A stretch of 55,307 nt of DNA from IMG/VR virus record IMGVR_UViG_3300029305_007860, one strand, 5' to 3'. This DNA is from an uncultured virus (IMG/VR IMGVR_UViG_3300029305_007860). Its lineage: Duplodnaviria; Heunggongvirae; Uroviricota; Caudoviricetes. Of this stretch, positions 7,259 to 54,833 are shown piece by piece. Position 1 is the first letter of the stretch, and each line of letters starts with the position of its first letter. A program made the position numbers and the translations under genes. The notes under the pieces were generated by a model, which was not told the origin of the DNA, ran no database searches, and worked only from the letters and a program-made list of their open reading frames with translations.

Positions 7259-7308
7259 TCGTTTTACTACTATGTAATTTTTATTAACCATCGGGAAAGG
7301 TAACCCGA
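7259..7308 (+). promoter_or_regulatory. CGTTTTACTA element plus leader hairpin
   Basis: TCGTTTTACTACTATGTA (7259-76); AACCA; TCGGG-AAAGGTAA-CCCGA. Confidence 0.8.
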
Positions 7309-7327
7309 CATTTTTTAAAAGGAGGAT

Positions 7328-7714
7328 ATGCTTATGCTTATTTCTAATCAGCCTCAGTTAAATAATATTGAGGTTATGCAACCTGCTCACATATCTACAT
7401 TTTCTGATTTTTTTAACTTACTTTCTTCAAAAACAGCAGAAGACATCATAAGTGAGTTAAATATTAATGAACACATCTGGGATGTAGAATGTATCGGCGA
7501 TATTGTTTACGAAGACGAAGACCTTTATGAGTTTCTGGACTCTCTCGGAGCTGAAATCGTGGATTATTTGGGAACTCATGTTGTTATTAGTTCTGATAAT
7601 GGATTTATTTATAAAATCCCTTGTGAAGACAGAACTAACAGACATGGAGATGACCTTCCTGATGAAACGGTCCTTTTCTTCGACTTTAATAACATTATCA
7701 GTTCAGTCGCTTAA
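7328..7714 (+). CDS. Hypothetical acidic protein
   Basis: ORF after GGAGG RBS (start may be 7334). Confidence 0.7.
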   Translation: MLMLISNQPQLNNIEVMQPAHISTFSDFFNLLSSKTAEDIISELNINEHIWDVECIGDIVYEDEDLYEFLDSLGAEIVDYLGTHVVISSDNGFIYKIPCEDRTNRHGDDLPDETVLFFDFNNIISSVA

Positions 7715-7747
7715 CTAATATTATTTTACAATTAAGGAGGATTTACT

Positions 7748-8638
7748 ATGGCTAAAATAGTTTATGTTGATTGGAGAGACAGACAATTCGAACCTGAAAT
7801 CATTGGTGTTTACGAAGATGAGAGTATGGGAATTAAAGCAAGAGAAAATAAAGAATATGAACTTACTCAGGAAGGTTATGTTGCCGGAGACGACTTCCAT
7901 GTTTGGGTTAAAGATGTAGAAATATTTAAAAACCCTAAAGAAAAAGAAACTATTAACTCTTTTTTAAGAAATATAATGGAATTTAAAGACAGAGCGACCG
8001 GCAGAAAATTTCTATATTTTTTAGATAAAGACACTAATATTTATTATGTTTTTGAAAATAATAACTTATTCTTCAAGGGCGAAACCGAAAACATTTTTAA
8101 CAAAATCGAAGAATTACGAGGTCCTTTAGAATACATAGCTTTTCCAGACACTCAAGCAAATCTGTATAACCCTTGTCCTGTTGATATGAATGGGCATTAT
8201 CGGATTTCCAACTCTTCACAAATAAATGGTATCTATTATAGAACCGATTTATTTATTGATAACTCAAGAGTTTGGACAAGAAAAAAATCTAGTGATGCAT
8301 TTTATTCAAAAGATGTTTTACAGCTTGACATTTCAGAATATATAGAAAGAATTATTAATGCATGTAAGTCTGCCGAACCTTTAAAGCGTATGTGTTTTGA
8401 TAACTTCGGTCCTTATATCCTTTATATTCATAAGAGGATTTCTTTGTATCCTTTCATTAACGGCGAAGATTACAATTTTGTTGATGTTTTTATTTACAAA
8501 AAAAATGCTGTCAAACGTGAAGGTAAATTTAAGGATGTTTGCGTTGATTTTGTCAAAGATGTTCCTATTTCTAATCTTAAAGAAATCTTAAATGATATTA
8601 TTCTTCTCCAAAAAGATATTGATATTACTTCTGACTAA
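7748..8638 (+). CDS. Hypothetical protein
   Basis: RBS AAGGAGG; 296 aa. Confidence 0.75.
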   Translation: MAKIVYVDWRDRQFEPEIIGVYEDESMGIKARENKEYELTQEGYVAGDDFHVWVKDVEIFKNPKEKETINSFLRNIMEFKDRATGRKFLYFLDKDTNIYYVFENNNLFFKGETENIFNKIEELRGPLEYIAFPDTQANLYNPCPVDMNGHYRISNSSQINGIYYRTDLFIDNSRVWTRKKSSDAFYSKDVLQLDISEYIERIINACKSAEPLKRMCFDNFGPYILYIHKRISLYPFINGEDYNFVDVFIYKKNAVKREGKFKDVCVDFVKDVPISNLKEILNDIILLQKDIDITSD

Positions 8639-8726
8639 TATTATTTATATTTTTTCTCTTAATATTAAAGCCAAGATTTATCATTCTTGGCTTTTAATAT
8701 TTTTAATTATATAATTTCTATTTTAC

Positions 8727-8755
8727 TTGATTTAATGTTCATTGAACACTATAAT
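8727..8755 (+). promoter_or_regulatory. sigmaA promoter with palindromic operator (copy 2 of 4)
   Basis: TTGATT-17-TATAAT with TGTTCATTGAACA; ~100 bp through the RBS nearly identical to 5490-5590. Confidence 0.8.
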
Positions 8756-8826
8756 ATAATTATAAGATATTTACAGCTTGTTATTAATTCTTTTTGAAAA
8801 CAACGATTTTAAGGAGGAAACATCAA

Positions 8827-9294
8827 ATGATTATAATAAGCAAAAAGGAATGGAATGATATCTATAAGGATTACAAAGGAATATGGCAAGATTATCACAA
8901 CAATCATCCTGAATGGATTGGAAAGAAAACGGTTATGAGTACATGTATTACACATAATCCTAATGAATTGTGTAAACTTTTGATTGAAGATGTAGATTTT
9001 GTTATTGAAGAATATTCCGAGAAAACAGACAAAGAATTAGAAAAACTTTGGGAAGAATTTGAGGATGTTACTTGCATAGAAGCAAAAGATTTCTATAAGG
9101 ATGATGAAGATTATAAGGATGATATTTCACTAGTTATCATGTCTGGGTGGCAAGATTTTGAAGCAGGAACAGCTATAGAAACAATTTGGCACTGGTTTAA
9201 CCAATATCACAGCAAGGGAGTTAGTTGGCTTATAAATGGGTGCGAATCTGCTGTACCCGATACAAAAGTAGAAGAATTTTTAAAAAACATCTAA
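8827..9294 (+). CDS. Hypothetical protein
   Basis: RBS AAGGAGG before ATG 8827 (ORF track start 8794). Confidence 0.7.
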   Translation: MIIISKKEWNDIYKDYKGIWQDYHNNHPEWIGKKTVMSTCITHNPNELCKLLIEDVDFVIEEYSEKTDKELEKLWEEFEDVTCIEAKDFYKDDEDYKDDISLVIMSGWQDFEAGTAIETIWHWFNQYHSKGVSWLINGCESAVPDTKVEEFLKNI

Positions 9295-9509: not shown

Positions 9510-11156
9510 ATGTTTACAGATAATAAGGATTTCTACCCTACACCTACATCACTAATAGAGGAAATGATTTCTGACCTAAATTTATCAATGATTCATACTA
9601 TTCTTGAACCTTCTGCCGGAAAAGGAGATATAGTCAAAGCTATAAAGGAATACAAAACACCAGCATCTACTTCTATGTATTATAATAATAAATCTATACT
9701 AGATATTGATTGTATAGAAAAAGAGCAGAACCTAAGGCATATTTTGAAGGGAAACGGTTTTAGAGTAGTACACGACGATTTCTTATCTTATGACACCATG
9801 AAAGAGTATGATTTAATAATAATGAATCCTCCTTTTTCAAACGGGTGTAAACATTTGTTAAAAGCTATAGAAATGCAAAAGAGAAACGGAGGAGCAATAA
9901 TTTGTATTCTTAACGCAGAAACCCTTAAAAACCAGTGTAACAATGATAGAATTTTACTCTCCAGATTATTAAAAGAATATAATGCAGATATAAAATTTAT
10001 AAAGGATGCTTTCTTAGATGCAGAAAGAACTACCAGTGTAGAAATTGCCCTTATAAAAATTAAGCTTCCTGAAACCGAAAGACAATCCTTTATACTTGAT
10101 AATTTAAAAAAATCTTCTCCAACAAAGGAACACGACTACGAATACAGCAATACTCAGGTAGCAGAAAACGATTACTTTAAATCTATTGTTCATCAGTATA
10201 ATTTAGAGATACGAGCCGGTATAAAACTTATAAAAGAATATTACTCTATGGCTCCTTATATTATGACTTCTTTCGGAAGGGACAAAAACACAGGAGAAGT
10301 TATTCAGACTGGAGGTTGTATACTATCTTTAAAAATTGATAACTCCTCAGCTTCAATAAACGAATACATAAGAGAGGTAAGAGAAAAATATTGGAAAGCA
10401 TTATTTGAAAATCCTAAATTTATCGGAAAGCTTACTGATAATCTTAAACGCGATTATAACAATAAAATCACCGAATTAAGAGATTATGATTTTTCTCTTT
10501 ATAATATATACGAGTTAAAAATCGACATGCAACAGAAAGTTGTGAAGGGAATAGAGGATACCATTATTTCGTTATTTGACGAATTAAGCCACAAACATTA
10601 TTACTTTAATGAAACTTCCAATAATATCCATTATTACAACGGATGGAAAACAAACAAATCATGGATTGTCAACAAAAAAGTGATAATTCCTTTACAGGCT
10701 TATAAAGATTTGGAATTTTCATGGGGTGGTTTTAAACCAACTCACAGAAATGTTATTTCTAAATTAATGGATATAGAAAAATGTTTCAATTATCTCGATG
10801 GCGGTTTAACCGAATCTATTGATTTGACATCCATATTAAGCTCATGCGAGAAATCTGAAACAACAAAGAATATTCATTTAAAATATTTTAATGTAACATT
10901 TTATAAAAAAGGAACCTGTCACATTACTTTTACAAACGAGGAAGTACTTAAGAAATTTAACATCTTTGGTTCTCAGCATAAGGGCTGGCTCCCTCCTTCA
11001 TACGGTAAGAAACCTTATTCTGACATGTCTACTGAAGAAAAATTTGTAATTAATGAGTTCGAAGGAGAATCTGAATATAATAAGGTATTATTAAATAGAG
11101 ACTATTACTTATCACACTCAATTAACGAATATTTATTGGAAATAAAATCAGCATAA
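9510..11156 (+). CDS. N6-adenine DNA methyltransferase with DUF4942-like C-terminal domain
   Basis: FYPTP, LEPSAGKG (motif I), MNPPF (motif IV); GWKTN and YKKGTCH in the C-terminal part. Confidence 0.85.
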   Translation: MFTDNKDFYPTPTSLIEEMISDLNLSMIHTILEPSAGKGDIVKAIKEYKTPASTSMYYNNKSILDIDCIEKEQNLRHILKGNGFRVVHDDFLSYDTMKEYDLIIMNPPFSNGCKHLLKAIEMQKRNGGAIICILNAETLKNQCNNDRILLSRLLKEYNADIKFIKDAFLDAERTTSVEIALIKIKLPETERQSFILDNLKKSSPTKEHDYEYSNTQVAENDYFKSIVHQYNLEIRAGIKLIKEYYSMAPYIMTSFGRDKNTGEVIQTGGCILSLKIDNSSASINEYIREVREKYWKALFENPKFIGKLTDNLKRDYNNKITELRDYDFSLYNIYELKIDMQQKVVKGIEDTIISLFDELSHKHYYFNETSNNIHYYNGWKTNKSWIVNKKVIIPLQAYKDLEFSWGGFKPTHRNVISKLMDIEKCFNYLDGGLTESIDLTSILSSCEKSETTKNIHLKYFNVTFYKKGTCHITFTNEEVLKKFNIFGSQHKGWLPPSYGKKPYSDMSTEEKFVINEFEGESEYNKVLLNRDYYLSHSINEYLLEIKSA

Positions 11157-17078: not shown

Positions 17079-17999
17079 ATGACCAAAATTTATACGAAAG
17101 GAGAGATAATTATAGAGAAGTTTAAAGTAATTGACTGTGAAAACTATGTTTACATAGCAAGAGAGGATAGATATTGTTCAGGAATGGGCAATTATTTATT
17201 CGATAGACAAGCAGCGGAAACCACAAACAAGGATAAGTGGTACAGATTGAACAAGATTCCAACAGAAGTTTTGGAGAAGAAACCTGATGAGAGAATCAAT
17301 AAGAGATATGAATTAAAAGCAGGTTATCAACCAACAGAACTTATGCCAAGTGTAATCACTATGGATATGTATGAGTCTGAAGAGTATGAAGATGTGATGG
17401 GATTATACACATTGAAATACGATACAAAAGAGGGTGGTTATGAACCAATCGAATTCTCAATTTCTACTATATATAAGAGAAAAGATTTTGAGTTTGTACC
17501 AAATAAGTATAGTGCAGAAACAGATTTGCTTACACAGATTGAATATCCTGAAGTTGCTCATCAAGATTTTCCTTGTAAATTAACTTCTGACCAGATGTAT
17601 TCAATCATCAGAAACCATGTAAAGAGCAATATCAATACAAAATATGCACAAGTAAAATCAGACTACGATTTCCATTTTGAAGTTGTTCGTCAAATTGGAT
17701 TAGCAGAACCATATACTACACAGGTGGATACAAATGGCTCGCTGTTTAATAAGAGAAGAAAACCTAAGTGGGTAACAAGAACTATTTCTACCAAAGAGGT
17801 TACAATCTTAAACCTTAAAAGAAAGTCGAGTGACACAGACTATGGAAAAGATTGTCATTTAGCTCCTAGCATTATCGGCGAAAATTATGCTGATTTGTCA
17901 GAGAAAGTAGAGAAGTATCTTGAAGAACTGATGACAAGTATCAATAAAAATTATTGTGAATGTCCTAACTGCAAAGGTTGGGGAGTTGTGGAGGTATAA
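17079..17999 (+). CDS. Hypothetical phage-like protein with C-terminal CxxCxGxG
   Basis: 306 aa; CPNCKGWG. Confidence 0.75.
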   Translation: MTKIYTKGEIIIEKFKVIDCENYVYIAREDRYCSGMGNYLFDRQAAETTNKDKWYRLNKIPTEVLEKKPDERINKRYELKAGYQPTELMPSVITMDMYESEEYEDVMGLYTLKYDTKEGGYEPIEFSISTIYKRKDFEFVPNKYSAETDLLTQIEYPEVAHQDFPCKLTSDQMYSIIRNHVKSNINTKYAQVKSDYDFHFEVVRQIGLAEPYTTQVDTNGSLFNKRRKPKWVTRTISTKEVTILNLKRKSSDTDYGKDCHLAPSIIGENYADLSEKVEKYLEELMTSINKNYCECPNCKGWGVVEV

Positions 18000-18616: not shown

Positions 18617-18985
18617 AAATTACAATGAATAAGGTAACAAATTTAACAGATGATATGTACAATGAAATTGCAAAGGAGCTTTTGATTAAGGAGCTTCATA
18701 GGTTGCATCCAGCCACTGTCAAATTTGATGATGATACTGGAGAGAGAATAAAATAAGATAGCAGGTATATGTCCAAGAAGATAAAGAAAAATAGGTTTAG
18801 TTTATAGTATTCGTAATAATATTGAGAAACGAGATGATAAAATTTTTCAAGGAACAGAGTTAGAAGAAACAGCCGAACGCATAATATAATATGTAATATT
18901 ATATTATATTATTATATATTATATAATATTATTAAATATATTAATATTGATTTGTAAAAGAGGTTTAAAAACCTCTTTTTTATTG

Positions 18986-19038
18986 TCGTTTTACTATTAC
19001 GTAATATTTAACTAACCAACAGGGAAAAGGTAATCCCT
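18986..19038 (+). promoter_or_regulatory. CGTTTTACTA element plus leader hairpin
   Basis: TCGTTTTACTATTACGTA; AACCA; AGGGA-AAAGGTAA-TCCCT. Confidence 0.8.
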
Positions 19039-19063
19039 ATATAATTTTAAAGGAGGTATTTTT

Positions 19064-19720
19064 ATGAAAAACACAAAACAGAGAAATTTTGATTTAAATA
19101 AGGAGATATCAGAGGATGAATTTGAGTTTTTACTAGCTTTATTCCATCCAAAACACTGTAAGGATTCTATGGATTACTCAATCCAAAGGCTTCTTTACAA
19201 ATATAAAGATTATTTATCTTTAAGAAAAAATGGGTTAGTACATATCTTCCCTTGTAAAACAGGAGATACCCTTTATAAATGGGATGAATCCAATAACAAA
19301 ATCACAAAATTAGAAGTATTATCTATTAACGTCAAACACGTTGCAGAAAAACATAGTGTTTTTATTCAGGAGAAAATCACTGCTTTCGGTCATAACGGCA
19401 CAGAAATCTTTGATTTTAACGATATAAATAAGACTGTGTTTACTTCGAAAGAAAATCTTATAACCAATCTAATTGGCTTTCCTGTTTATACTTGGGACGA
19501 TTTATATGTAAGAGCTGAAAACAAGGGGGTTGGAGATGCTGAACTTACAGCTAAAGATACCGCCAGAGGAATATTATGTGAAATAATCAAAGACTCCAAA
19601 GGTTATAATATTGATGATTGTGAAATTCCTGAGGAGGAAATAGAAACTTTCTTAGATGAATCTCCAATTCTGTATTTATTTAATGAATCAGGGAATTTAT
19701 TAGGGAATTTAATCAGCTAG
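19064..19720 (+). CDS. Hypothetical protein
   Basis: RBS AAGGAGG. Confidence 0.75.
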   Translation: MKNTKQRNFDLNKEISEDEFEFLLALFHPKHCKDSMDYSIQRLLYKYKDYLSLRKNGLVHIFPCKTGDTLYKWDESNNKITKLEVLSINVKHVAEKHSVFIQEKITAFGHNGTEIFDFNDINKTVFTSKENLITNLIGFPVYTWDDLYVRAENKGVGDAELTAKDTARGILCEIIKDSKGYNIDDCEIPEEEIETFLDESPILYLFNESGNLLGNLIS

Positions 19721-19727
19721 TCAAAGG

Positions 19728-20024
19728 GTGGTGTTTTTTATGTCATTTACAGAACAAATAGATTCCGAATTAGCTATTGAATTAGCTATTGACTACTTAG
19801 AAAAAGAAAAAAAGGTCTTTATTAATTCCGGACCGTGTAATGACCAAATTCTTTCCTATTCTACATATTTTGAAAGAGTTCGTAACTTTTGGAAAATATC
19901 TTATAAGAAAGAATACATTTTTACTACGACTGCATGTGTATTTCCAGCCCAAATAAAACTTTCAGATTATGAGCAACTTCGAACTGAAGAATTTGACAAC
20001 TCCCTATTTATTTACATCGAATAA
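19728..20024 (+). CDS. Hypothetical protein
   Basis: ORF track; likely start 19740. Confidence 0.6.
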   Translation: MVFFMSFTEQIDSELAIELAIDYLEKEKKVFINSGPCNDQILSYSTYFERVRNFWKISYKKEYIFTTTACVFPAQIKLSDYEQLRTEEFDNSLFIYIE

Positions 20025-20063
20025 TCTTATTTACGAGAACCCGAGATTTATTCTCGGGTTTTT

Positions 20064-20118
20064 TCGTTTTACTAATATGTAATACATTAATTAACCATAC
20101 TGGGGAACAAGGAACCCC
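20064..20118 (+). promoter_or_regulatory. CGTTTTACTA element plus leader hairpin (variant loop)
   Basis: TCGTTTTACTAATATGTA; AACCA; GGGG-AACAAGGAA-CCCC. Confidence 0.75.
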
Positions 20119-20338
20119 TCAAATAACTAAAAAGGAGGATTTTACAATGAATTACACAGAAAAATATACAGGAAGGAGTAATACCTAAATCCGTGTAGAC
20201 ACGGTTTATGCCTAGTGAACAGATGTGAGGTATAATAAAATAGAACACAGTGGCTATAAGGCTTTAAACGGAAACTTTTAAGGTCGCATAAAAGCAAACG
20301 AATCTATATCCACGAACCGGTTTTGGTTAGTGGTAGGT

Positions 20339-21064
20339 ATGAAAAAATTAAGAGTATGTTGGTTAAGTGCCGGAATATCAAGCTTTATTGCAGGATACTT
20401 AGCAGGTAATATTGATGAATGGATTTACATAGATATTACAGACCAGCACGAGGATAGTATTAGTTTTATTAAGGATTGCGAAAAAGCAATAGGTAAAGAA
20501 ATCAAAATACTAAAGTCTAGTGAATATGTTTCAGTTGAAGAATGCGTGCGAGTATTTGGTGGTTTTAGAAATGCTTACAACCAATTTGCCCCTTGCACAA
20601 ACTGGCTCAAAAAGAGAGTCAGAAAACAATGGGAGGAACAGCATAAAGACTACGATATAACTTACATATGGGGTTATGACCTAAAAGAAACAGCCAGAGC
20701 AGAAAGAACTACTGAAGAGAATCCGCATGTAAATCATGAATATCCTTTGATTGATAAAAAATTATCTAAACAAGATGTACACGGATTATTTTATCGAACT
20801 TTTGATTTTCCAAGACCATATATGTATGATTTAGGATATCCAAACAATAACTGTGTGGGGTGTCCCAAAGGCGGAATGGGGTATTGGAATAAAATTAGGG
20901 TTGACTTTCCTGAGGTTTTTGAAAGCCGTGCGAAACTCGAAAGAGATGTAGGATATTCAATGCTTAAAGAATGTTTTCTTGATGAGCTTGACCCAAATAG
21001 AGGTAATATAAATACTGAAATTTTTCCTGATTGCAGTATCATGTGTTACTTAGCTGAATATTAA
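20339..21064 (+). CDS. PAPS-reductase-like PP-loop protein (phage/plasmid type)
   Basis: VCWLSAGISS, PCTNWLKK, YPLI, GYPNNNCVGCPKGG. Confidence 0.75.
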   Translation: MKKLRVCWLSAGISSFIAGYLAGNIDEWIYIDITDQHEDSISFIKDCEKAIGKEIKILKSSEYVSVEECVRVFGGFRNAYNQFAPCTNWLKKRVRKQWEEQHKDYDITYIWGYDLKETARAERTTEENPHVNHEYPLIDKKLSKQDVHGLFYRTFDFPRPYMYDLGYPNNNCVGCPKGGMGYWNKIRVDFPEVFESRAKLERDVGYSMLKECFLDELDPNRGNINTEIFPDCSIMCYLAEY

Positions 21065-21151
21065 CCAATATTGCTAATAGTAAAGGACTAGGATAATTCT
21101 TAGTCCTTTTATTATATTTAATAATTCAAATATTTTACATTTGTTTTATTT

Positions 21152-21208
21152 TCGTTTTACTATTATGTATTTTATTATTTCACAACTCAAGGGAAAGGTA
21201 ACCCTTGA
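21152..21208 (+). promoter_or_regulatory. CGTTTTACTA element plus leader hairpin
   Basis: TCGTTTTACTATTATGTA; TCAAGGG-AAAGGTAA-CCCTTGA. Confidence 0.8.
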
Positions 21209-21230
21209 ATATTAAAAAGGAGGAAATATT

Positions 21231-21893
21231 ATGGAACAAAGAAGCGATGGTTGGTACAAAGCAGACAAAGGAAAGCACTTTGTATTAACTCAAAAGGGAA
21301 AAGATGAATCAGCAAGTTATAGAAATAAAACTGTTGGAGAGCCTGTTCGCGAATATGATACAGAAGCTACAAAATGGGATATTATATCCGGTCATCTTAT
21401 TGAAGTGGATATTCCTGATTGGGTAGTAAGACCGGGTTTTCAGGTTGTATACGACCATAAAGGATATACAATTACAGCTGGTAATGGTGAAATTTTTCAC
21501 AACCTCGAGATAGCGAAGAAATATAGAGATAATTATAATAACAAAGGTTGGGGAGAAAAAGCATATATTCGTGATGCCGTATTTGAAGGTCGAGAACCAA
21601 AAATGTGTTCCGATTATAATGGGAAACCGGTATATAACGATAGTTGGTATTATGGTACTGGTTCATTAGCAGTTGGAGATTATGTCGAGGAATCCATTAT
21701 TGATGATATGATAAATGCATTGCCTCCAGCATGTCTCAGAGCTGATTGTATACAATGTGGAGAAGCATATTCAACAAGACTTCATCCTGACGGTGGTTAT
21801 AGAAATACATATACAACTTTTAAGAAGGTTGATGAAGGCGTGTATGAATATTGCGGTGACTGTTTTAGAGGGGAAAACCTTATGAAAAAGTAA
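21231..21893 (+). CDS. Hypothetical protein
   Basis: RBS AAGGAGG; Cys-containing C-terminal domain. Confidence 0.75.
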   Translation: MEQRSDGWYKADKGKHFVLTQKGKDESASYRNKTVGEPVREYDTEATKWDIISGHLIEVDIPDWVVRPGFQVVYDHKGYTITAGNGEIFHNLEIAKKYRDNYNNKGWGEKAYIRDAVFEGREPKMCSDYNGKPVYNDSWYYGTGSLAVGDYVEESIIDDMINALPPACLRADCIQCGEAYSTRLHPDGGYRNTYTTFKKVDEGVYEYCGDCFRGENLMKK

Positions 21894-21969
21894 TATATAC
21901 TCAGTCTATTCTCTTAATAATTAATCTTTAAAATAAAACTCAAGAATTTTTCTTGGGTTTTATTTTTTT

Positions 21970-22019
21970 TCGTTTTACTATTATGTATTAATTTATTAAC
22001 CATATGGGAAAAGGTACCC
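21970..22019 (+). promoter_or_regulatory. CGTTTTACTA element plus leader hairpin
   Basis: TCGTTTTACTATTATGTA; AACCA; GGG-AAAAGGTA-CCC. Confidence 0.75.
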
Positions 22020-22115
22020 TAAATTATATAAAAAGAATTTTATATTATATATATCTCTCTCTATATATTTATTACCTTTTTCTAAATTAAACAAAATATA
22101 TTAAGAAAGGAAAAG

Positions 22116-23153
22116 GTGATAAATATGAATACAAACAAGGAAATAAAAGTAAAATTATACCGTAACGAAGATGATAACTACGTTGAATTATGGCAGGTTG
22201 TAGAACATAAACAAGGTACTCCTAAGTATTATGGCAGATATACTTATGGAACAGAAGGAACATGGTACTATATTTGTGACCCATTAGGATATTGCGAATT
22301 AGACTATCCGGTAAAAGATGATGTTGTTTTTATATTATGTGATGATAATAATAACGAGGTATTAAGATACTCAAACGCAGATAAAAATCCTCTTCCAAAA
22401 TTCAACCTTTTTATGAAACAGAAATGGAATGAATTCAGTAAGGATTTAACTTACAACAGAGAAAATTTTGAAGTCGATTTCTGGTCTTTAGCCTATAACG
22501 GAGAAACAACATTGTCAATAAATCAGTGGTTATTAACTTATATGGACCCTGATTTATACAAAAAAGAAATAGACGAAATGTCCGGATATGACATAAACTG
22601 GACAAGTCCTTTATATTCTTCAGAAATCAAGTATGAGAGTATTCCGGGAACCGAATTTGAATATCTTGGACATAAATATCAATTTACTAAGGTTTTCAAT
22701 AAACACAATATTTGTGGAGCAGAATGGACAGAATTCATATGTACCGATTCACCATATGTAGTAGAAAAATCACCATTTAATAAAAACAAAAACTACATAA
22801 AAAACTATGGATACCTCGGTAATATATTTGATGCATCCCAAACCGGAACTATGTTTGACAAAAGAACCGCCAAGCTATTAGTAGAAAAAGAACTTCTTAA
22901 ACTATTTCCTCAAAAAATAAGAGGAGCCAGCAGATTATTTATCATTGAAGGAATTTACTGTTACGAGAAAACATATAATAATGTTGCAGAAATGCTTATT
23001 TCAAATGATTATCACAAAACAAAAATCTCTGCATTGATAGAAAATCTTAAAGAAATAACAAAGGATATTGTATTTGCATCATCTTATCAAAATGCTCAGA
23101 TTATCAAAGAAAAATATCCAGATGTTTACGGTTATAATCATTGTTTATTCTAA
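22116..23153 (+). CDS. Hypothetical protein
   Basis: 345 aa ORF, purine-rich RBS, terminator downstream. Confidence 0.75.
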   Translation: MINMNTNKEIKVKLYRNEDDNYVELWQVVEHKQGTPKYYGRYTYGTEGTWYYICDPLGYCELDYPVKDDVVFILCDDNNNEVLRYSNADKNPLPKFNLFMKQKWNEFSKDLTYNRENFEVDFWSLAYNGETTLSINQWLLTYMDPDLYKKEIDEMSGYDINWTSPLYSSEIKYESIPGTEFEYLGHKYQFTKVFNKHNICGAEWTEFICTDSPYVVEKSPFNKNKNYIKNYGYLGNIFDASQTGTMFDKRTAKLLVEKELLKLFPQKIRGASRLFIIEGIYCYEKTYNNVAEMLISNDYHKTKISALIENLKEITKDIVFASSYQNAQIIKEKYPDVYGYNHCLF

Positions 23154-23208
23154 TATTTTCTTTTTCATAGAAAAAGCAAGAGAAATCTTGCTTTTTTCTA
23201 TTTATTTA

Positions 23209-23255
23209 TCGTTTTACTATTATAACAAGTTAAGGATGTGAAAATCCACGACTTT
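23209..23255 (+). mobile_element. CGTTTTACTA element interrupted at TTAT by an IS200/IS605 left-end remnant
   Basis: TCGTTTTACTATTAT then AACAAGTTAAGGATGTGAAAATCCACGACTTT. Confidence 0.6.
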
Positions 23256-23287
23256 AAATTGCAGAACATTTAAGGGGGATAATTCTA

Positions 23288-23608
23288 ATGCTTGAATTCT
23301 ACAAAAGTACAAGTCCAAAGGCAAGAAAAGAATATAAATGTGATTTATGCAATCAACTAATACATAAAGATGAAGTATATTATAGATATTCAGGCAAGTA
23401 TGATGGGGAAATGTTTGATTATAAATACCATTTAGCTTGTCAAACACTCATAAATGCCTATTGTGATGAAAATGACGATACCGAATATGATAACGATTCA
23501 ATTCAGGATTGGTTGCACGATAAATTTTGTTTTGATTGTAACCAAAAAAGAGAGTCTTGCAAACAAATAGAATACTCTTGTCCTATAATACAATCTTACT
23601 ATAAATAA
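23288..23608 (+). CDS. Cys-rich hypothetical protein
   Basis: KARKEYKCDLC, HLAC, CFDC. Confidence 0.7.
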   Translation: MLEFYKSTSPKARKEYKCDLCNQLIHKDEVYYRYSGKYDGEMFDYKYHLACQTLINAYCDENDDTEYDNDSIQDWLHDKFCFDCNQKRESCKQIEYSCPIIQSYYK

Positions 23609-24929: not shown

Positions 24930-26266
24930 AACCAATTAAGGGCGAGAAAACCCACGACTTTAGTCGTGTGGATGATAGCCCTTTTCTTCTAAATATATAG
25001 CTATTGTATCGTAAGACCAGACCATAGGAGAAATATAATGAAAAAAGGCATTAAGTTCAGGGCGTATCCTAATAAGGAACAGCAAAACTTAATAAATCAG
25101 ACTCTAGGCTGTTGCAGACTAATCTACAACAAAGGTCTTGCTATGCGTAATGATGCTTTTTCTAATGGTACTAAAGCTAACTATGGTCATACATCTGCCA
25201 TGCTTACGCACTTAAAGAAGCAGGAGGATTTTTCTTTCTTAAAAGATGTGGACTCTATTGCACTACAGCAGTCCCTTAGAGATTTGGAACACAGTTTTAA
25301 AAACTTCTTTGATAAAAGAGCAAAACATCCACAGTTTAAGAGTAAGCATAATAATTATCAGTCCTACAGAACCGTCAATCAGGGAGATAACATTCGTATT
25401 GTAGGAAATCGCATTAAACTTCCCAAATTAGGATTTGTTAAAATAAAACAATCTATGGAAGTAGGACATATCAATAATGTTACTGTAGAAAGAACACCTA
25501 CGGGAAAGTATTTTGTAGTCCTGAATGTAGATTTTGAGCCTCGAATAATAAAGAATAATGGTAATTCCATAGGTATTGATGTAGGCATTAAGGAATTTTA
25601 CACAGACAGTAACGGAAATACAGTACATAATCCAAAGCATCTTGAAAAGGCTATGCGTACCCTTGCCAAAGAACAACGCAGACTTTCACGTAAGAAAAAG
25701 GGTTCTAATAACCGTAATAAACAGCGTATTAAAGTCGCAAGGCTTCACGAAAAGGTTACTAATCAGAGAAATGATTTTTTACAGAAACAGTCTACTATGC
25801 TGGTGCGTGAAAACCAAACCATCTGTATAGAGGACTTGAATGTAAAAGGAATGATTCGTAATCACAAACTTGCAAAATCCATAGCAAGTGTATCGTGGTC
25901 TAAGTTCTTTAATATGCTTGAATATAAGGCTGTGTGGTACGGAAACGATATAATCAAAGTTCCTACTATGTACCCTAGTAGCCAGAGCTGTTCCTGTTGT
26001 GGATTTAAAAATCCTCTGGTAAGAAATCTTGCTGTCCGTAAATGGGAGTGTCCGAACTGTCATACATTACACAACAGAGACCTCAATGCAAGTATAAACA
26101 TTTTAAACAAAGGGCTTTCAGTAGCCTAAAATATATAAGTACCGTAGGGCATACGGGAATTTACGCTTGCAGACATCTTTGTAAGACGAGCCTACAGGAT
26201 TTCCTGTTAGGAACGCTGTGGTGGTTGAAGCAAGAATCCCTCGACTTTAGTCGTGTGGAGTGTCAA
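24930..26266 (+). mobile_element. tnpB-only IS200/IS605-family (IS1341-like) element
   Basis: TTAT (24926-29) then left end with AAAA guide and hairpin CCCACGACTTTAGTCGTGTGG; right end GAAT-hairpin-GAGTGTCAA; no tnpA. Confidence 0.85.
25038..26129 (+). CDS. tnpB: RNA-guided endonuclease TnpB
   Basis: N-terminal KFRAYPN; RuvC GIDVG, IEDL, NRDLNA; zinc finger CSCC and CPNC. Confidence 0.95.
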   Translation: MKKGIKFRAYPNKEQQNLINQTLGCCRLIYNKGLAMRNDAFSNGTKANYGHTSAMLTHLKKQEDFSFLKDVDSIALQQSLRDLEHSFKNFFDKRAKHPQFKSKHNNYQSYRTVNQGDNIRIVGNRIKLPKLGFVKIKQSMEVGHINNVTVERTPTGKYFVVLNVDFEPRIIKNNGNSIGIDVGIKEFYTDSNGNTVHNPKHLEKAMRTLAKEQRRLSRKKKGSNNRNKQRIKVARLHEKVTNQRNDFLQKQSTMLVRENQTICIEDLNVKGMIRNHKLAKSIASVSWSKFFNMLEYKAVWYGNDIIKVPTMYPSSQSCSCCGFKNPLVRNLAVRKWECPNCHTLHNRDLNASINILNKGLSVA

Positions 26267-26776: not shown

Positions 26777-26907
26777 ATTAATATTTTTTACTCCTATATA
26801 TCTATATATATAATATATACTTTTATACTTATATACTTAAGGGCAAAATCATCCTTCAAAAAATCCAGTAAAATCAAGGGTTTGAGAAGAGCGAGAGTTT
26901 CTTAAAT

Positions 26908-27158
26908 ATAACGTTTTGATAGTCGAAATATAACGTTTTGATAGTTAAAACATAACGAATTGATAGTTTTGAACGATTTTTATTCAAATATAACATTTTG
27001 ATAGTTTTAAATTATTAATTTCCTAAAAATAACATTTTGATAGTTTTGAAAACCTTTTATTTTTAAGAATTTAACTACTTTTATCTATTTTAAAATAACA
27101 AATTGATAGTTTTGAATTATTGTATATTTCTTAAAAATAACATTTTGATAGTTTTGAA
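26908..27158 (+). repeat. Iterons of the Rep_3 replicon (7 copies)
   Basis: ATAAC(G/A)wwTTGATAGT at 26908, 26930, 26952 (22-bp period), 26990, 27029, 27095, 27137. Confidence 0.85.
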
Positions 27159-27971: not shown

Positions 27972-28027
27972 TCGTTATACTCTTATGTATGCATTAATTA
28001 ACCAAACAGAGCTAAAGGTAACTCTGT
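27972..28027 (+). promoter_or_regulatory. CGTTTTACTA element plus leader hairpin
   Basis: TCGTTATACTCTTATGTA; AACCA; ACAGAG-CTAAAGGTAA-CTCTGT. Confidence 0.75.
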
Positions 28028-28079: not shown

Positions 28080-28661
28080 ATGGGACAGCGTTCACAAATT
28101 TATGTAAGATTTTTTGATGGAGAAAAAATACGTTTAATTGCAAATTATTATTCTTGGAATTACGGTGAAAGAATGATAAGTCGTGCAAGATACGGCATTG
28201 AAACAATAAAAACCATTTTAGGATTCAATGGTTTACATTATAATTTTTCCACAAATATCACAAAACTCCAAAGAATTTTTGATGTAAACTTTGATATGTG
28301 TGATTATCAAGTCAGTGCAGATATTATATCTGAATGGAAAGAACTTGCTCCTGATGATAATTTTAATGACTACGTTTTTCGTCTTCAACATAATAACGAC
28401 GGTAAACTATTTATTGACATTGATACTCAGGAAGGAATTATTAAATACGCGTTTACTGATTACATTGCCAATCCAGATAACATCATGAACGGAGAAGAGT
28501 ACATGATTTGGAACATGGGCGAAAAATGGGAAGAATCAGATTATCTCAAAAAAAATACCGTTCTTAAGTGTAAACGCAATATAAAGTCTATATCAAAAAA
28601 CGCTCAACTTATGTCAAAAGAAGAATTAATTGAGTTTCTAGATTTCGACTACACAAATTAA
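28080..28661 (+). CDS. Hypothetical protein
   Basis: 193 aa; MGQRSQIYVR, NNDG. Confidence 0.75.
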   Translation: MGQRSQIYVRFFDGEKIRLIANYYSWNYGERMISRARYGIETIKTILGFNGLHYNFSTNITKLQRIFDVNFDMCDYQVSADIISEWKELAPDDNFNDYVFRLQHNNDGKLFIDIDTQEGIIKYAFTDYIANPDNIMNGEEYMIWNMGEKWEESDYLKKNTVLKCKRNIKSISKNAQLMSKEELIEFLDFDYTN

Positions 28662-28857
28662 TATTCTTTATAAAAAAGCAACTCTAAAACAGGGTTGTTT
28701 TTTTAATTTTTTTACAGCAAAAATACTACTTTTAAGTTGAGTTTTTCGTTTTTTACTATTGGTAAATTAATACATTGTCGTATTATCCCTTTTCTTCAGT
28801 CAAATCATCAATTTTTTTGAATGCTTGACAAAGCTTATACATTGTCCTATAATACAA

Positions 28858-34798: not shown

Positions 34799-36271
34799 TT
34801 GATAAGAGTATGTCTTGCCGTTGGAAATAACGCTGTTGAAAAATGGCTTGAAGAAAAACTTTCGGAATATTGCGATTTTGTTGGAACTGCATTACATAAA
34901 GGACAAATATTACAGCTTATAAACCAAACAACTCCTGATGTATTAATTTTAGATATTTCTCTTCCTACAGATAAAATAAATGGTATTTCTTTAGACTTAC
35001 TTGTTCATAAAATTAAATCTACATTTCCTGCGTGTAGAATAATCTTAATAGCTGGTGATAGGAGTCCGGGAGATGAATTATTAACTAGAATGGTTAATAA
35101 AGGAGTTTATGATATTGTATGTGGAAGTCCTGTTCGAATTCAAGATGTATGCGACATGATATTTAATCCAAAGGGATATTCGTATGGGGCAAGTTTATTA
35201 CAAATTTATGAAGAAATTTCAGATAATACGTTAGGGATAGAAGATGTTGAAATTATTGAAGAAAAATCAAATTTTCAAGAAAAAGAAAACAAAATAGAGA
35301 GAAATATGGGGTCGGGAGATACTTCTGTTTTATACTCACAAAATTCAATAAATACGAATTCTGATGATGAGGATTTAAATTTAAGTACATATAAAGGGAT
35401 AATCTTTTATGCTGATTCAGGAAATAATCAGTTGGTTTTGTCTAATAAGAAACCTATAACTGATTACAAAAAAACAGATTATAATAACAATTTTTCGTAT
35501 AATCATAGATTTGATAAAAATGGAAAGCTTCTTGTTTTTGCTTCGGCAAGGGATGGAGTAGGATGTACTTCGTCAGCGATAAATACCGCGTATGCGTTTG
35601 CGGATATGAAAAAAACAGTACTTCTTATTGATTTATCTTTTTCTAATTGTATTTATCAAAGGTTAGGACTGCCTGAAAATTATGGTTATACATTAGAGGA
35701 TGCAGTACGAGGTTTGATAAATAAACAAGATATATCGAATATTCCTCTTACTAAATTTAAAATTCCTAATAATATAGGAGAACATATTAATTGTGTTCCA
35801 GAATATCTCTCTTTTTTAAGTGTATCCGAAACATTTAATTACTACGATGAGCTACTACATATTATTGATGTTATTAATTTTTATAAACATTTATATGATT
35901 ACATAATTATTGACACTAGTCTTAATTATCTAACTTTTCCTGTTGTAAGGGATATTTTTGGAGTTGCTGATAAATATATCTTTGTAACAAGTCAAGATAT
36001 ATTTGATATTAACAGACTTTATAATTCTTTAGATATTTGTAAAAACACAATAAGTATGTATCAACGATATATCCTTTTAGTTAATAAGTACATAAAAAGA
36101 GGAGAACCTAAATTAGATACTATATCAAAGGTATTTAATGCTTCTCATACTATTTATACTCCAGAGGATTCTTATGAATATATGAGAGGGTATTCAAGTG
36201 CCAGAGCGTATTATACCTTGTCTAAATCTAATATAAAACAGATTTATAAAAATATTATAAATTTGATTTAG
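34799..36271 (+). CDS. Receiver domain fused to a MinD/ParA-like ATPase (CpaE/TadZ-like)
   Basis: PDVLILDISLP receiver; deviant Walker A SARDGVGCTS; VLLIDL, YDYIIIDT. Confidence 0.75.
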   Translation: MIRVCLAVGNNAVEKWLEEKLSEYCDFVGTALHKGQILQLINQTTPDVLILDISLPTDKINGISLDLLVHKIKSTFPACRIILIAGDRSPGDELLTRMVNKGVYDIVCGSPVRIQDVCDMIFNPKGYSYGASLLQIYEEISDNTLGIEDVEIIEEKSNFQEKENKIERNMGSGDTSVLYSQNSINTNSDDEDLNLSTYKGIIFYADSGNNQLVLSNKKPITDYKKTDYNNNFSYNHRFDKNGKLLVFASARDGVGCTSSAINTAYAFADMKKTVLLIDLSFSNCIYQRLGLPENYGYTLEDAVRGLINKQDISNIPLTKFKIPNNIGEHINCVPEYLSFLSVSETFNYYDELLHIIDVINFYKHLYDYIIIDTSLNYLTFPVVRDIFGVADKYIFVTSQDIFDINRLYNSLDICKNTISMYQRYILLVNKYIKRGEPKLDTISKVFNASHTIYTPEDSYEYMRGYSSARAYYTLSKSNIKQIYKNIINLI

Positions 36272-36285: not shown

Positions 36286-37401
36286 ATGTCTACAGAATAT
36301 AATTTATCTGATGATTCTTATAACCCTCCTATTGATATTGTTAAAACAACTCAAAATAAGAATAAGGTCTATAAGAAAAAAACTAAAAATTCACCTTTAG
36401 ATGATGTTGTAAATGAGATTTTACAAGAAAAAAAAGATAATAACTACTCTATTATAGTTGAATATTCAGATGAGGAATATGAATGTTTATTTAATAAAGC
36501 TAACTCTCTGTGGGATGAGTTAGCAGAAATTGATAAAAAAGCATTTGATAATGATAAACAAATATTTATTCTTATTTATTTGTTTTCTGAAGCGTTTATA
36601 TATGAACAAAAACAAAAACAAGTGTTTTATGGTGCTTCAGAATCAAAAATAAGTGGAAGAAATATTTATTCTATTTCATATACAGAGTATATGTCTTATT
36701 CTGACAGAATTAATAATGGTTATTTTACAATGTCAGAAAAAAATAGAATTATGGAAAAAATGTTTCCGCTTTCTCAATCTATTTATCGCAAATATGTCCC
36801 GGGAGATGATTGTTTTGTTGGTCCTTACAATAAAGAGGATATTAGGGAGGCTATATATTTAGGAATTACAAAAGCAATGAATTCATATGTTGCTTTCAAT
36901 GAAAAAACAAAAGTAAGTTTTTCTTCTTGGGCGTATACATGTATGAATAATGCATGTATAGATACTCTTAAGTACTTTAAATCTAAGAAGAATAATGCAA
37001 AAGTCGAGTCTTTAGATGATACTGGGTCAATAAATAATGGGAATTCAGATAATAATAGTGAAAAAACGCTGGGCGATAAGATTTCAACAAATACATATGG
37101 CGAGGATTTTAATAATATTACAGATAATCTTGATAGAAAAGAGTTTGTGGAACAAATATTTACGAATATGCTTTTTGAAGGAGAAGAGAAGGTAGTAAAA
37201 ACAGAAATAATTATTTTAAAAGCGTATTTTGGGTTTTTATCTGGTGAAACTCAGACATTATTAAATATATCAAATATGCTTAATATGAAACTTGATAAAG
37301 TAAAACAATATTTTTCGAGCGGAAAAGAACGACTTATAAAAACTGTTTATAAGATGGGATATACAAAAGATGAAGTAGTTCAACTTTTTTTCTCTGAATA
37401 G
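36286..37401 (+). CDS. Sigma-70 family RNA polymerase sigma factor (alternative)
   Basis: Region 2-like EDIREAIYLGITKAMNSY...FSSWAYTCMNNACIDTLK; SLDD; region 4-like ILKAYFG...TLLNISNMLNMKLDKVKQ. Confidence 0.75.
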   Translation: MSTEYNLSDDSYNPPIDIVKTTQNKNKVYKKKTKNSPLDDVVNEILQEKKDNNYSIIVEYSDEEYECLFNKANSLWDELAEIDKKAFDNDKQIFILIYLFSEAFIYEQKQKQVFYGASESKISGRNIYSISYTEYMSYSDRINNGYFTMSEKNRIMEKMFPLSQSIYRKYVPGDDCFVGPYNKEDIREAIYLGITKAMNSYVAFNEKTKVSFSSWAYTCMNNACIDTLKYFKSKKNNAKVESLDDTGSINNGNSDNNSEKTLGDKISTNTYGEDFNNITDNLDRKEFVEQIFTNMLFEGEEKVVKTEIIILKAYFGFLSGETQTLLNISNMLNMKLDKVKQYFSSGKERLIKTVYKMGYTKDEVVQLFFSE

Positions 37402-37419
37402 TCGTTTTACTATTATGTA
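37402..37419 (+). promoter_or_regulatory. CGTTTTACTA element (no hairpin) heading the T4SS operon
   Basis: TCGTTTTACTATTATGTA directly after the sigma stop codon. Confidence 0.8.
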
Positions 37420-50887: not shown

Positions 50888-50905
50888 TCGTTTTACTACT
50901 ATGTA
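50888..50905 (+). promoter_or_regulatory. CGTTTTACTA element (no hairpin)
   Basis: TCGTTTTACTACTATGTA, followed within a few bases by RBS GAGGAGG. Confidence 0.8.
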
Positions 50906-50925
50906 GGTAGAGGAGGAGGCTACTT

Positions 50926-52665: not shown

Positions 52666-53028
52666 ATGAATATAAAAATTCCTGTAATAAGAGTACAAAA
52701 TGGGTTATCGAAAACTATACATATAGTAGGCACAGATATTCATGATGAGTTATATATACAAAATAATTGTATTCATTACGAGAATACTAATAATTTTACG
52801 GGCTCTGAAATTGGCTCTTATCAGTATATCGGAGAAAAAAATGATTTAACTGGTCAAGTAAATGTAGAATTTGTGAGTATAGAAGAGTTTATAGAAATGA
52901 TTACAGCTAATTATGAGTTTGACAAAGAAACTTTAAATAGATTAAATGATTTTAAAATTTCTTCTTTAAAGCAAGAAGAGGATATAAAAAAAGCACAGGA
53001 GGATGCCGTTCTTCTTGCTGTATTATAA
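52666..53028 (+). CDS. Hypothetical protein
   Basis: Promoter TTGACG (52598)-17-TATAAT (52621); RBS GAGGTG. Confidence 0.7.
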   Translation: MNIKIPVIRVQNGLSKTIHIVGTDIHDELYIQNNCIHYENTNNFTGSEIGSYQYIGEKNDLTGQVNVEFVSIEEFIEMITANYEFDKETLNRLNDFKISSLKQEEDIKKAQEDAVLLAVL

Positions 53029-53039
53029 GGAGGTAAAAT

Positions 53040-53480
53040 ATGAATAAGGTAATTTTAATGGGACGTTTAACTCGTGACCCGGAAGTTAGATATTCGCAAG
53101 GAGGAGAACCTTTGGCTATAGCTAGATATACATTGGCTGTGGACAGACGTGGTAGAAGAGATTCTAGTAGTAATGACCAGACAGCAGATTTTATTCCATG
53201 TGTTGCTTTTGGACGTGCTGGTGAGTTTGCTGAGAAATATTTAAGACAGGGTACAAAGATGGTTATAACTGGTAGAATTCAGACTGGAAGTTACACTAAT
53301 AAAGATGGTAATAGAGTATATACTACAGAGGTTATCGTTGAGGACCAAGAGTTTGCTGAAAGTAAAGCTTCTGCTTCTAATTCAGGTTATAATAATTCCT
53401 ATATTCCAGAACCAAATGCAAGTACAGATGGTTTTATGAGTATTCCAGAGGGAATCGAGAACGATTTACCATTTCAATAA
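53040..53480 (+). CDS. ssb: Single-stranded DNA-binding protein
   Basis: MNKVILMGRLTRDPE, GRIQTGSY, C-terminal DLPF. Confidence 0.95.
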   Translation: MNKVILMGRLTRDPEVRYSQGGEPLAIARYTLAVDRRGRRDSSSNDQTADFIPCVAFGRAGEFAEKYLRQGTKMVITGRIQTGSYTNKDGNRVYTTEVIVEDQEFAESKASASNSGYNNSYIPEPNASTDGFMSIPEGIENDLPFQ

Positions 53481-53644
53481 AACATACTATTAAAAGAGTA
53501 GAAATTAATACATCTACTCTTTTAATAATTTGTTTTGTGAATATTCTAGAAAAGTATTCTTTTTGGACTGATGGTTGTAAATTATTGACAAATAGATAAT
53601 AAAAACATATAATAATATTATTATATGGCTTAGGTGGTGAGAAT

Positions 53645-54502
53645 ATGGCTTATCCTAAATTAAGTTTTGATGAGTACATTAACCTGTTAAAAGAGTATAA
53701 AAACAAATATGGTAATTTAGAAATACCTTCATCATATACTACTGATTCCGGAATTAATTTAGGATACTGGGTTAATTATATTAGAAGGCATGAGAATCAA
53801 TGCCCTTTAGATAGAAGAATAATGCTTGATGAAGTAGGTTTTGTATGGATTCCTAAACATACATGGATGTATTTATATAGTATTGCTAAACAATATTACG
53901 ATGAATATGGGACAATTAATGGAGTTCCAAATAATTTTGTATATAAAGGAGTATGGTTAGGGGCGTGGCTATGTAAAAATCGAAGTTTATATAATAAGAA
54001 TAAATTGTCAAAGTTTAAGACAAAAAAATTGGATGAACTGAATTTTTCTTGGAAGTCTAAATATGAGGAAGTATATAACACTTATTTACTATTATTAGAA
54101 AGTTATTATAAAAAGTATGGACATTTACTTCCTTCTGTAAATGAAAAATACGAAGATTTAAATATTGATAAAAAAAAATACCCCATTGGAAATTATGTAG
54201 CGAGATTACGGCAAGGATATAAGAACGGTAAATTAAGTGAAAAAAAAATAATAGAACTTGAAAATATTGGTATGAAGTGGAATGGTAGAAAAGGATTTTG
54301 GGAATATCACTATAATTTATGTATAGAGTATATAAACGCAGGAAATAAACTTGTCTCTCAAACTGTATATAAGGGAAGACAAATAGGGGCATGGTATAAT
54401 AGGCAAAAAATATTAAAACATAACAAAAGTCTTGATGATGAACAATTAAGTCTTTTGATTGAATTGGATAATAGAATAAAAAAGGGTGATAATGATGAAT
54501 AA
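53645..54502 (+). CDS. Helicase-associated (HA) domain repeat protein
   Basis: Four LGxWxxxxR...LxxxGFxW-type repeats; promoter TTGACA (53585)-17-TATAAT. Confidence 0.8.
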   Translation: MAYPKLSFDEYINLLKEYKNKYGNLEIPSSYTTDSGINLGYWVNYIRRHENQCPLDRRIMLDEVGFVWIPKHTWMYLYSIAKQYYDEYGTINGVPNNFVYKGVWLGAWLCKNRSLYNKNKLSKFKTKKLDELNFSWKSKYEEVYNTYLLLLESYYKKYGHLLPSVNEKYEDLNIDKKKYPIGNYVARLRQGYKNGKLSEKKIIELENIGMKWNGRKGFWEYHYNLCIEYINAGNKLVSQTVYKGRQIGAWYNRQKILKHNKSLDDEQLSLLIELDNRIKKGDNDE

Positions 54503-54731
54503 TAGTGAAATAAATCGAATATCTAATATAGCTAATGTATTTATTGATAAAAATAAGTCATCTCAGAAAGTTGTGTTTAATAATAATGTTTTCCCAGAAA
54601 CACAAGGAGATATTTTAGAAAAGATTGAAAAAGCTAAGAAACATCAATATGAAAAAGGACTTTTATCTAATGAATTTATAGTAGAAACACAAGAAGGAAA
54701 ATTCTATAGTTCGATAAAAGGATATGTCTAA
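54486..54731 (+). CDS. Hypothetical protein
   Basis: Overlaps the stop of the upstream gene. Confidence 0.55.
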   Translation: MIMMNNSEINRISNIANVFIDKNKSSQKVVFNNNVFPETQGDILEKIEKAKKHQYEKGLLSNEFIVETQEGKFYSSIKGYV

Positions 54732-54779
54732 TTAACAAATACTAAAAAATATTAAAAAAAAGAGCTTAGGCTCTTTTTT

Positions 54780-54833
54780 TCGTTTTACTATTGTGTAACT
54801 TATTCAATAACCATAGAGGTAAGGTAGCCTCTA
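54780..54833 (+). promoter_or_regulatory. CGTTTTACTA element plus leader hairpin
   Basis: TCGTTTTACTATTGTGTA; AACCA; TAGAGG-TAAGGTAG-CCTCTA. Confidence 0.8.

Follow-up and report, generated by a model that had tools for sequence, protein, structure and literature searches.

On the Bacillus subtilis plasmid pBS32, the plasmid sigma factor SigN (ZpdN) serves many private promoters that lie before genes of nucleotide and DNA metabolism (PMC6751061, in the sections available). Repeated leaders are described for two other plasmids: EGeRS2, which works with Reg576 on p576, combines a strong promoter with DNA operators of the sequence TTATCCC, and EGeRS1 of pLS20 is longer than 300 nt, lacks a constitutive promoter and prevents read-through (PMC8708921 and PMC6294495, parts available). 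The CUP repeats of the IncN plasmid pKM101 are conserved upstream repeats that head several leading-region units (PMC6294495, same part). Here we analyze a stretch of 55,307 nt (the window) from the IMG/VR record IMGVR_UViG_3300029305_007860, filed there as an uncultured virus, in which an 18-nt box occurs ten times and is followed in seven leaders by a small hairpin with a variable stem and a conserved purine loop. It is a selected leader hairpin without a named family, it recurs with a different loop in a related element, and it would combine features of two known kinds of system, the private sigma regulon and the RNA operator.

The locus resembles SigN in being a probable plasmid sigma regulon, with a sigma-70-family gene on the element itself, and the SigN −35 element TTTACGTTT is similar to the CGTTT core of the window box. 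The likeness is one of promoter and regulon, the sequences of the two sigma proteins standing outside the comparison. SigN promoters, however, have another conserved element, CCAGATATAA, set at a fixed spacing, and none was seen in the window; the full SigN arrangement (TTTACG plus GATATA/CCAGATATAA at fixed spacing) was not found, and box copy 50888 has a Shine-Dalgarno sequence (SD) in that place. PMC6751061 uses neither 'hairpin' nor 'stem'. With EGeRS1 and EGeRS2 the locus has in common that leaders are repeated in front of scattered and variable genes on a Gram-positive conjugative plasmid, and that the regulon stands apart from the transfer operon. It differs from both, as they are described in the accessible parts of those papers, in its short module of ~70 nt, a box held in common with the transfer operon and a co-varying stem, and no TTATCCC motif was found in the leaders inspected; it was not assigned to either group. 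The CUP repeats are more remote, being longer than 400 bp, proposed as ArdK/ArdR DNA sites and found in Gram-negative hosts (available part of PMC6294495).

The box is an 18-mer of the TCGTTTTACTAHTRYGTA type, present on the coding strand at every copy, and the exact sequence CGTTTTACTA occurs nine times in the window, on the + strand only. A matrix made from the ten copies scores them at 21–30 bits and the next-best site at 10.5 bits. A first-pass annotation of the window had placed hairpins behind seven of these boxes, and all seven stems were found at those positions, on the + strand as are the boxes and the terminator-like hairpins given here. Behind copy 1 (7259–7276), the hairpin TCGGG/AAAGGTAA/CCCGA (7291–7308) follows TAACCA, has its SD, GGAG, at 7321 and heads a 128-aa open reading frame (ORF; 7328–7714) of no assigned function. 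Copy 2 (18986–19003), directly downstream of a terminator-like hairpin (18956–18979), is followed by AGGGA/AAAGGTAA/TCCCT (19021–19038), an SD at 19052 and two function-unassigned ORFs (19064–19720 and 19740–20024), a unit closed by a terminator-like hairpin at 20035–20063. The next unit starts with copy 3 (20064–20081) and GGGG/AACAAGGAA/CCCC (20102–20118); after the SD at 20134, the ATG at 20148 opens 13 codons only, and a PAPS-reductase-like gene (20339–21064) and a terminator-like hairpin (21082–21109) complete the unit. Copy 4 (21152–21169) precedes TCAAGGG/AAAGGTAA/CCCTTGA (21187–21208), an SD at 21219, a phage-like ORF (21231–21893) and a terminator-like hairpin (21930–21966). The weakest hairpin, GGG/AAAAGGTA/CCC (22006–22019), lies behind copy 5 (21970–21987) and lacks an SD at the usual distance; its unit contains an ORF at 22125–23153 and is closed by a terminator-like hairpin at 23170–23197. 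Copy 7 (27972–27989) is followed by ACAGAG/CTAAAGGTAA/CTCTGT (28006–28027), an SD at 28041 and a phage-like ORF without a family (28080–28661). Copy 10 (54780–54797), immediately after a terminator-like hairpin, is followed by TAGAGG/TAAGGTAG/CCTCTA (54814–54833), an SD at 54846 and ssb, which starts with the ATG at 54858 and continues past the window end.

The hairpin is absent after copy 8 (37402–37419), which abuts the stop codon of the sigma gene and heads the pilin/PrgI/VirB4 operon of the type IV secretion system (T4SS), and after copy 9 (50888–50905), which heads the XRE operon, as the first-pass annotation had stated. That annotation overlooked a third hairpin-free box, copy 6 (23209–23226), which has a deviant 3′ end and heads an ORF at 23288–23608, so that 7 of 10 boxes carry the hairpin. 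Several of its details need qualification. The distance of 15–20 nt between element and hairpin holds when counted from the end of the 18-mer (14–20 nt) but not from the decamer. The loop AAGGTA is conserved, except that the 20102 loop reads AAGGAA, and AACCA precedes the hairpin in six of the seven leaders, that at 21187 having TCACAA instead. An exact CGTTTTACTA is not present before 28006, where the box at 27972 differs by two mismatches. The common architecture is thus AACCA (6/7), a stem of 3–7 bp and a loop of 8–10 nt that contains AAGGWA. The loop lies 18–20 nt from the GGAG SD in all six leaders that have an SD there, and at a looser 20–27 nt from the end of the box.

The stem is selected for pairing and the loop for its sequence. 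Among the seven window copies, the loop hexamer has a pairwise identity of 0.95 and the box one of 0.91; the stem arms, at 0.48–0.49, are as variable as the spacer (0.48). At the middle core pair, five copies have G-C and two have A-U; the outer pairs vary throughout. When arms were exchanged among the copies, the native set came to −48.0 kcal/mol in total, the mean being −24.7, and only 2 of 5040 permutations, counting the native one, were as stable; by pair count, 5 of 5040 equalled the native set. AAGGTA as such shows no enrichment in the window (35 sites against 38.8 expected), and for any one box the probability that AAGGWA falls in the 8-nt slot after it is ~0.012. A stem score of 9 is reached by 7/7 native sites and by 6 of 102 other AAGGWA sites, and all six AAGGWA hairpins of the window with at least 4 bp and three G-C pairs lie behind a box. 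The covariance model R1, built on the seven sites and matching them by construction at 36–54 bits, finds nothing above 18.3 bits in the rest of the window. Single leaders are not unusually stable (z −2.1 to +1.1). The covariation that the first-pass annotation had seen is modest in a formal pair count on a model-fitted alignment of poor register, with 9 of 500 shuffles reaching the native value, and a register slide of −1 pairs 75.9% of cells against 73.5%. In contigs from 4 of 8 sequencing runs that cover 18900–23300 patchily, none of the changes listed falls inside a hairpin, a result that weighs neither way. The claim that the stems differ yet always pair around a conserved loop, as a selected structure and second control layer would, is upheld by the arm swaps and identities and by the recurrence of the design in G001, described below.

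None of the known structured RNAs compared accounts for the motif. A comparison of the window with Rfam 15, which the first-pass annotation had called for, gave six matches up to E 5, all under the gathering threshold and none over a leader; the G001 loci L213 and L224–L226 (L212 left out) gave none. A preQ1-like riboswitch was rejected, there being no Rfam match, and pairing of AACC with the loop GGT as a pseudoknot was rejected on the leader at 21187, which lacks AACCA, on the absence of AACCA throughout G001 and on the lack of covariation. ANTAR sites consist of two tandem hairpins with hexaloops; each leader here has one motif hairpin.

A second element with the same design is present in G001, a Lachnospiraceae metagenome-assembled genome (MAG), whose VirB4 at locus L130 is the closest to that of the window (58%) among the 80 loci kept from a genome scan. 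Its sigma homolog is 28% identical to the window sigma factor, and the gene order is conserved: a receiver/ParA-like gene, sigma and pilin. Its box, CGTTTAATTA, is related to the window box and has 14 exact matches in 3.9 Mb, of which 12 lie on three transfer-gene contigs, judged from gene content to be one element; these 12 stand before genes in coding orientation, one of them between sigma and pilin. The remaining two look like chance matches, and the reversed control gave four. Hairpins follow 8 of the 12 boxes. Seven of the eight show a WAGAGY-type loop 10–16 nt before the SD, and the nrdD copy has a nested TGAGTA loop 34 nt before it; the loop lies 22–45 nt from the box. The hairpin is missing behind the boxes of pilin and of a surface protein and behind two others, so that the pilin-operon box lacks the hairpin in both elements. 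Only 6 of 40,320 arm permutations matched the native G001 set, pairwise identity is 0.83 for the loop and 0.46–0.48 for the arms, and in seven of the eight copies 6/7 pairs changed on both sides, with 77.6% of cells paired and 0 of 500 shuffles as good. The loops are element-specific, since AAGGWA hairpins lie behind a box in 0 of 3 cases in G001 and WAGAGY hairpins in 0 of 2 in the window, and the window-built R1 model does not pick up the G001 hairpins. The tagged G001 genes with a family match encode NrdD, a UvrD helicase, a DUF3854 protein and an S1-domain protein. Contig C174 of G001 (L212, L213) also holds two further repeated intergenic motifs, TTGCGTYTGTATCA and GTTGGGATACCAAC, which are probable repressor operators.

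The probable reader of the box is P0001, a 371-aa protein encoded at 36286–37401 on the + strand. We assign it to the sigma-70 family because its profile (A7) matches SigA/RpoS chains (E 4e-15), because its single-protein matches, although below the curated cut-offs, are to Pfam Sigma70_r2 and TIGR02937, and because all top matches in a Foldseek search with its model are sigma factors, at a low TM of ~0.2. Directly 5′ of it, in the window and in G001 alike, a gene at 34799–36271 codes for a receiver domain and a ParA/MinD-like ATPase; its product is a candidate controller of the sigma factor. Box copy 50888 ends 20 nt before the XRE start codon, so that a box acting as promoter would have to include the −10 region; a role as a −35 element was rejected on the same ground, as too little space is left. 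Terminator-like hairpins lie directly or shortly upstream of six box copies, and no conserved sequence precedes the box. The most likely role of the box is that of a promoter for the sigma factor which the element itself encodes, and not that of a boxA. A box-like sequence with an additional T at 28745–28763, below the matrix cut-off, stands behind a terminator-like hairpin (28675–28705) without an AAGGTA hairpin. Several AAACCCACGACT-like motifs, which we take to be IS200/IS605 ends, occur at 23235–23260, 4866–4885, 5180–5200 and 24945–24970; one of them lies after the deviant box 23209, whose leader it may have replaced.

For the hairpin itself, an even chance may be given to its being an RNA operator that is read by an element-encoded protein and sets translation or message lifetime, probably by repression. 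The element sigma factor would start transcription at the box, serving the transfer operon, the XRE operon and about eight units at scattered positions. Seven of these would have a 5′ leader that folds into a short, GC-rich stem with an element-specific purine loop on top, 18–20 nt ahead of the SD. An element-encoded RNA-binding protein would bind the loop and set the translation or lifetime of the tagged messages apart from the transfer operon. We infer both the action as RNA in the 5′ leader and the element-encoded reader. Among the options raised by the first-pass annotation, a protein tag or translation element is preferred because the distance from loop to SD is fixed and that from loop to box is looser. 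Small hairpins with an invariant loop, a free stem and a dedicated protein are familiar from the MS2 coat protein, T4 gp32 and RegA, ribosomal-protein operators and lambda boxB; the likeness drawn here is one of design. Repression seems about twice as likely as the opposite sign. It is favored because the geometry fits the dual-site bridging of CsrA and because a tagged G001 gene encodes an RNA-binding fold; an RNA-binding protein with its own leader tagged is expected under negative autoregulation. A repressor present in the donor and absent from a fresh recipient might, speculatively, allow transient expression of replication-support and cargo genes after transfer, which would be an RNA-level counterpart of Reg576 control on p576.

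A similar geometry is known from CsrA/RsmA. GGA is 100% conserved in its sites selected by SELEX, and a second site lies 10–63 nt away with an optimum above 18 nt (PMC7652899, available part). The window leaders likewise pair a short stem and purine loop with an SD at bridging distance, 18–20 nt from the loop end in 6/6, and the 20102 loop reads ACAAGGA. By contrast, six of seven window loops carry GGT, the G001 loops carry AGAG and no CsrA gene was found among the window ORFs scanned; with GGA in 1 of 7 window loops and 0 of 8 G001 loops, a CsrA/RsmA site was rejected. The only CsrA of G001 lies on contig C55, outside the three element contigs.

A lead to the reader, and only a lead, is P0189, the 264-aa S1-domain protein of G001 whose own leader is tagged. 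Its predicted structure consists of three beta-barrels, with bS1 nearest by both sequence and fold. Such a three-domain bS1-like protein (L215:658–1452; H26–H35) is common to the T4SS plasmid family, lying in G001 upstream of a Replic_Relax gene and, in three S1-carrying plasmids, immediately after a response regulator gene. It is conceivable, if improbable, that this plasmid family uses a private two-step channel in which the sigma factor makes the messages and the bS1-like protein reads an element-specific loop code, so as to load ribosomes or to block them, and controls its own synthesis by way of that hairpin; box, loop, sigma and S1 would then change together between elements. No CGTTT box was seen by eye upstream of nine distant S1 genes, two of whose upstream regions are incomplete.

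Several points weigh against this explanation of the hairpin as an RNA operator. No loop-binding protein has been identified, and the 55-kb window, out of a contig of ~117 kb, contains no S1 or CsrA homolog. P0189 homologs occur on ten plasmids and in 9 of 16 MAGs; four of the ten plasmid records and one further genome showed no box enrichment, and pGspE55-1, an S1 plasmid searched over its whole sequence, has no repeated box and no recurrent leader hairpin or loop. Because neither box enrichment nor a leader hairpin was found in the S1 plasmids examined, S1 may serve another role. The promoter role of the box is itself read from sequence. Two of the seven window copies look decayed, that at 22006 lacking an SD and that at 20102 standing before a 13-codon ORF. 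The distance from loop to SD differs between the elements (18–20 nt in the window against 10–16 nt in G001, and 34 nt in the nrdD copy), and only two elements are available. The loop motifs were read by eye out of the data they describe and two of the G001 copies almost duplicate each other, so that the G001 statistics overstate independence.

An alternative that dispenses with an element-encoded reader is that the host reads the leader, the 5′ stem and purine loop slowing 5′–3′ decay or aiding ribosome loading. In Firmicutes 5′ stems stabilize messages, and both the fixed loop-SD distance and an SD left unburied by the hairpin in most predicted folds agree with this. We hold it to be rather unlikely, as it leaves unexplained two loops that are each fixed within their own element, and as the stems are weak by their z values and lie away from the inferred 5′ end. 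It is doubtful, too, that the hairpin acts at the level of transcription or of single-stranded DNA (ssDNA), where nascent RNA or ssDNA would be read by the sigma-RNA polymerase during escape or pausing, or would have a role in transfer. The constant link of hairpin to box, and box and loop differing between elements as the sigma factor does, speak for such a role; an automated, noisy register search counted four G-U against three A-C pairs in the stems, which favors neither RNA nor ssDNA. The distance from loop to box, 20–27 nt in the window and 22–45 nt in G001, nevertheless varies more than that from loop to SD. In ssDNA promoters of the Frpo type the inverted repeats themselves form the promoter (available part of PMC8708921), and here there is only a short stem downstream of the box.

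A boxA/boxB-like antitermination site, put forward by the first-pass annotation, did not hold up and is improbable. The short stem with a conserved purine loop near the transcript start recalls lambda boxB, which has the same features. The boxes, however, lie immediately downstream of intrinsic terminators, each of four consecutive tagged units is closed by a terminator and succeeded by a new box, and strong hairpin-plus-U tracts precede five G001 boxes. A nut-like site would lie upstream of terminators to be read through, and here terminators close the tagged units. The long T4SS operon, which would need antitermination most, is untagged in both elements, and no NusG/N-type match was found among the window ORFs scanned. 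Little probability, about the same, attaches to a target for a trans-acting antisense RNA or a loop-specific ribonuclease. An exposed, invariant loop would suit both, and the 22006 loop has a perfect 8-nt complement in cis; such a complement, however, is present in only one of seven leaders, and no candidate RNA was identified, with nine minus-strand AAGGTA sites outside the one-by-one examination. Least probable is a neutral relic of cassette duplication, in which the leader was copied with its promoter and the loop has no role. The tagged units do resemble an array of promoter-gene-terminator cassettes, and two copies look decayed; yet the arms have diverged to the level of the spacer and still pair while the loop has not diverged, G001 behaves alike, and the arm-swap tests make a relic unlikely.

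Individual leaders show further features. In the 22006 leader, a long stem of 18–20 bp (22064–22127, + strand; duplex −18.9 kcal/mol) hides the start codon of ORF 22125 together with its SD, and its 5′ arm (TACCTTTT, at 22073) can also pair with the hairpin loop (22009–22016; −11.6). Alternative pairing of this arm with stem or loop is a possible switch, in this one leader of seven. Between 20148 and 20339, a second open stretch in the frame of the 13-codon ORF runs into the PAPS-reductase-like gene after in-frame stops, and the 5′ part of this region may be a decayed gene start. The 28006 leader has 35 nt between its SD and the ATG at 28080; an in-frame ATT at 28050, 5 nt after the SD, could be the start codon.

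Beyond G001, the design was not recovered. No description of the motif was found in a literature search that reached few subscription papers; the accessible part of PMC12934698 does not mention sigma, hairpin or promoter, and six motif strings are absent from the supplements searched of PMC8040213, two files of which, probably the largest, lay outside the search. The box pattern had no match in viral contigs and at least 121 in metagenome contigs, none of those listed having the box-AACCA-hairpin layout, and the hairpin pattern had eight matches in viral contigs, none behind a box. No locus was confirmed with the sigma profile in genome and viral contigs or with the VirB4 and S1 profiles in viral contigs, the sigma factor had no match in PLSDB, and 80 VirB4 loci scanned for box and hairpin gave no convincing copy. 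In five genomes, the window-type box was found in none and R1 gave one match (E 0.69), not behind a box. A narrow sigma profile recovered one of 401 genomes of the G001 family, G001 itself. A broad one matched 309 of 400 class-level genomes at E ≤1e-22, only G001 strongly; the matches, of ~240 aa, are apparently host sigma factors. A joint box pattern in ten more distant genomes and plasmids did not rise above the reversed control. Box and hairpin together are seen in two elements only, and the more distant relatives examined have neither.

The window, which covers less than half of its contig, is a conjugative element of a low-GC, gut-type Firmicute. Its G+C content is ~30%, its long ORFs lie almost all on the + strand, and family scans identify a pilin, PrgI, VirB4, a CHAP/lysozyme protein, Rep3, RepA_N, two SSBs, Gad1, a methyltransferase and an IS605-type gene. 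The VirB4 falls in a clade of close relatives (50–63% identity), some on contigs of 100–142 kb, and has relatives with 44–48% identity on Bacillota megaplasmids. Upstream of the Rep3 gene, about eight iteron-like repeats with the core TTGATAGT, mostly preceded by ATAAC, mark a probable origin (26905–27155); a second initiator gene, RepA_N, lies at 29113. A long AT-rich non-coding stretch at 2700–5560 is a possible oriT or partition site, with TCGGG/GTCGGG words recurring at 3007–3340 and TATACTAA repeats at 3370–3640 and 4045–4066. The Gad1 anti-Gabija gene (17079–17999; Pfam E 4e-69) and a nearby DUF4942 methyltransferase gene at 9510 lie in a cargo region with sigma-70-like promoter matches of its own.

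Described mechanisms by which Gram-positive conjugative elements express replication-support and anti-host genes for a short time, and apart from the transfer genes, come from a few plasmids and act at the DNA level. If the leader hairpin is an RNA operator, it would represent a mechanism at the RNA level, in which one sigma regulon is split into tagged and untagged genes and the loop differs between related elements. The tag would also mark which of the unannotated cargo genes are co-regulated, and a module of ~70 nt with two natural loop variants and a candidate reader would offer a directly testable target.

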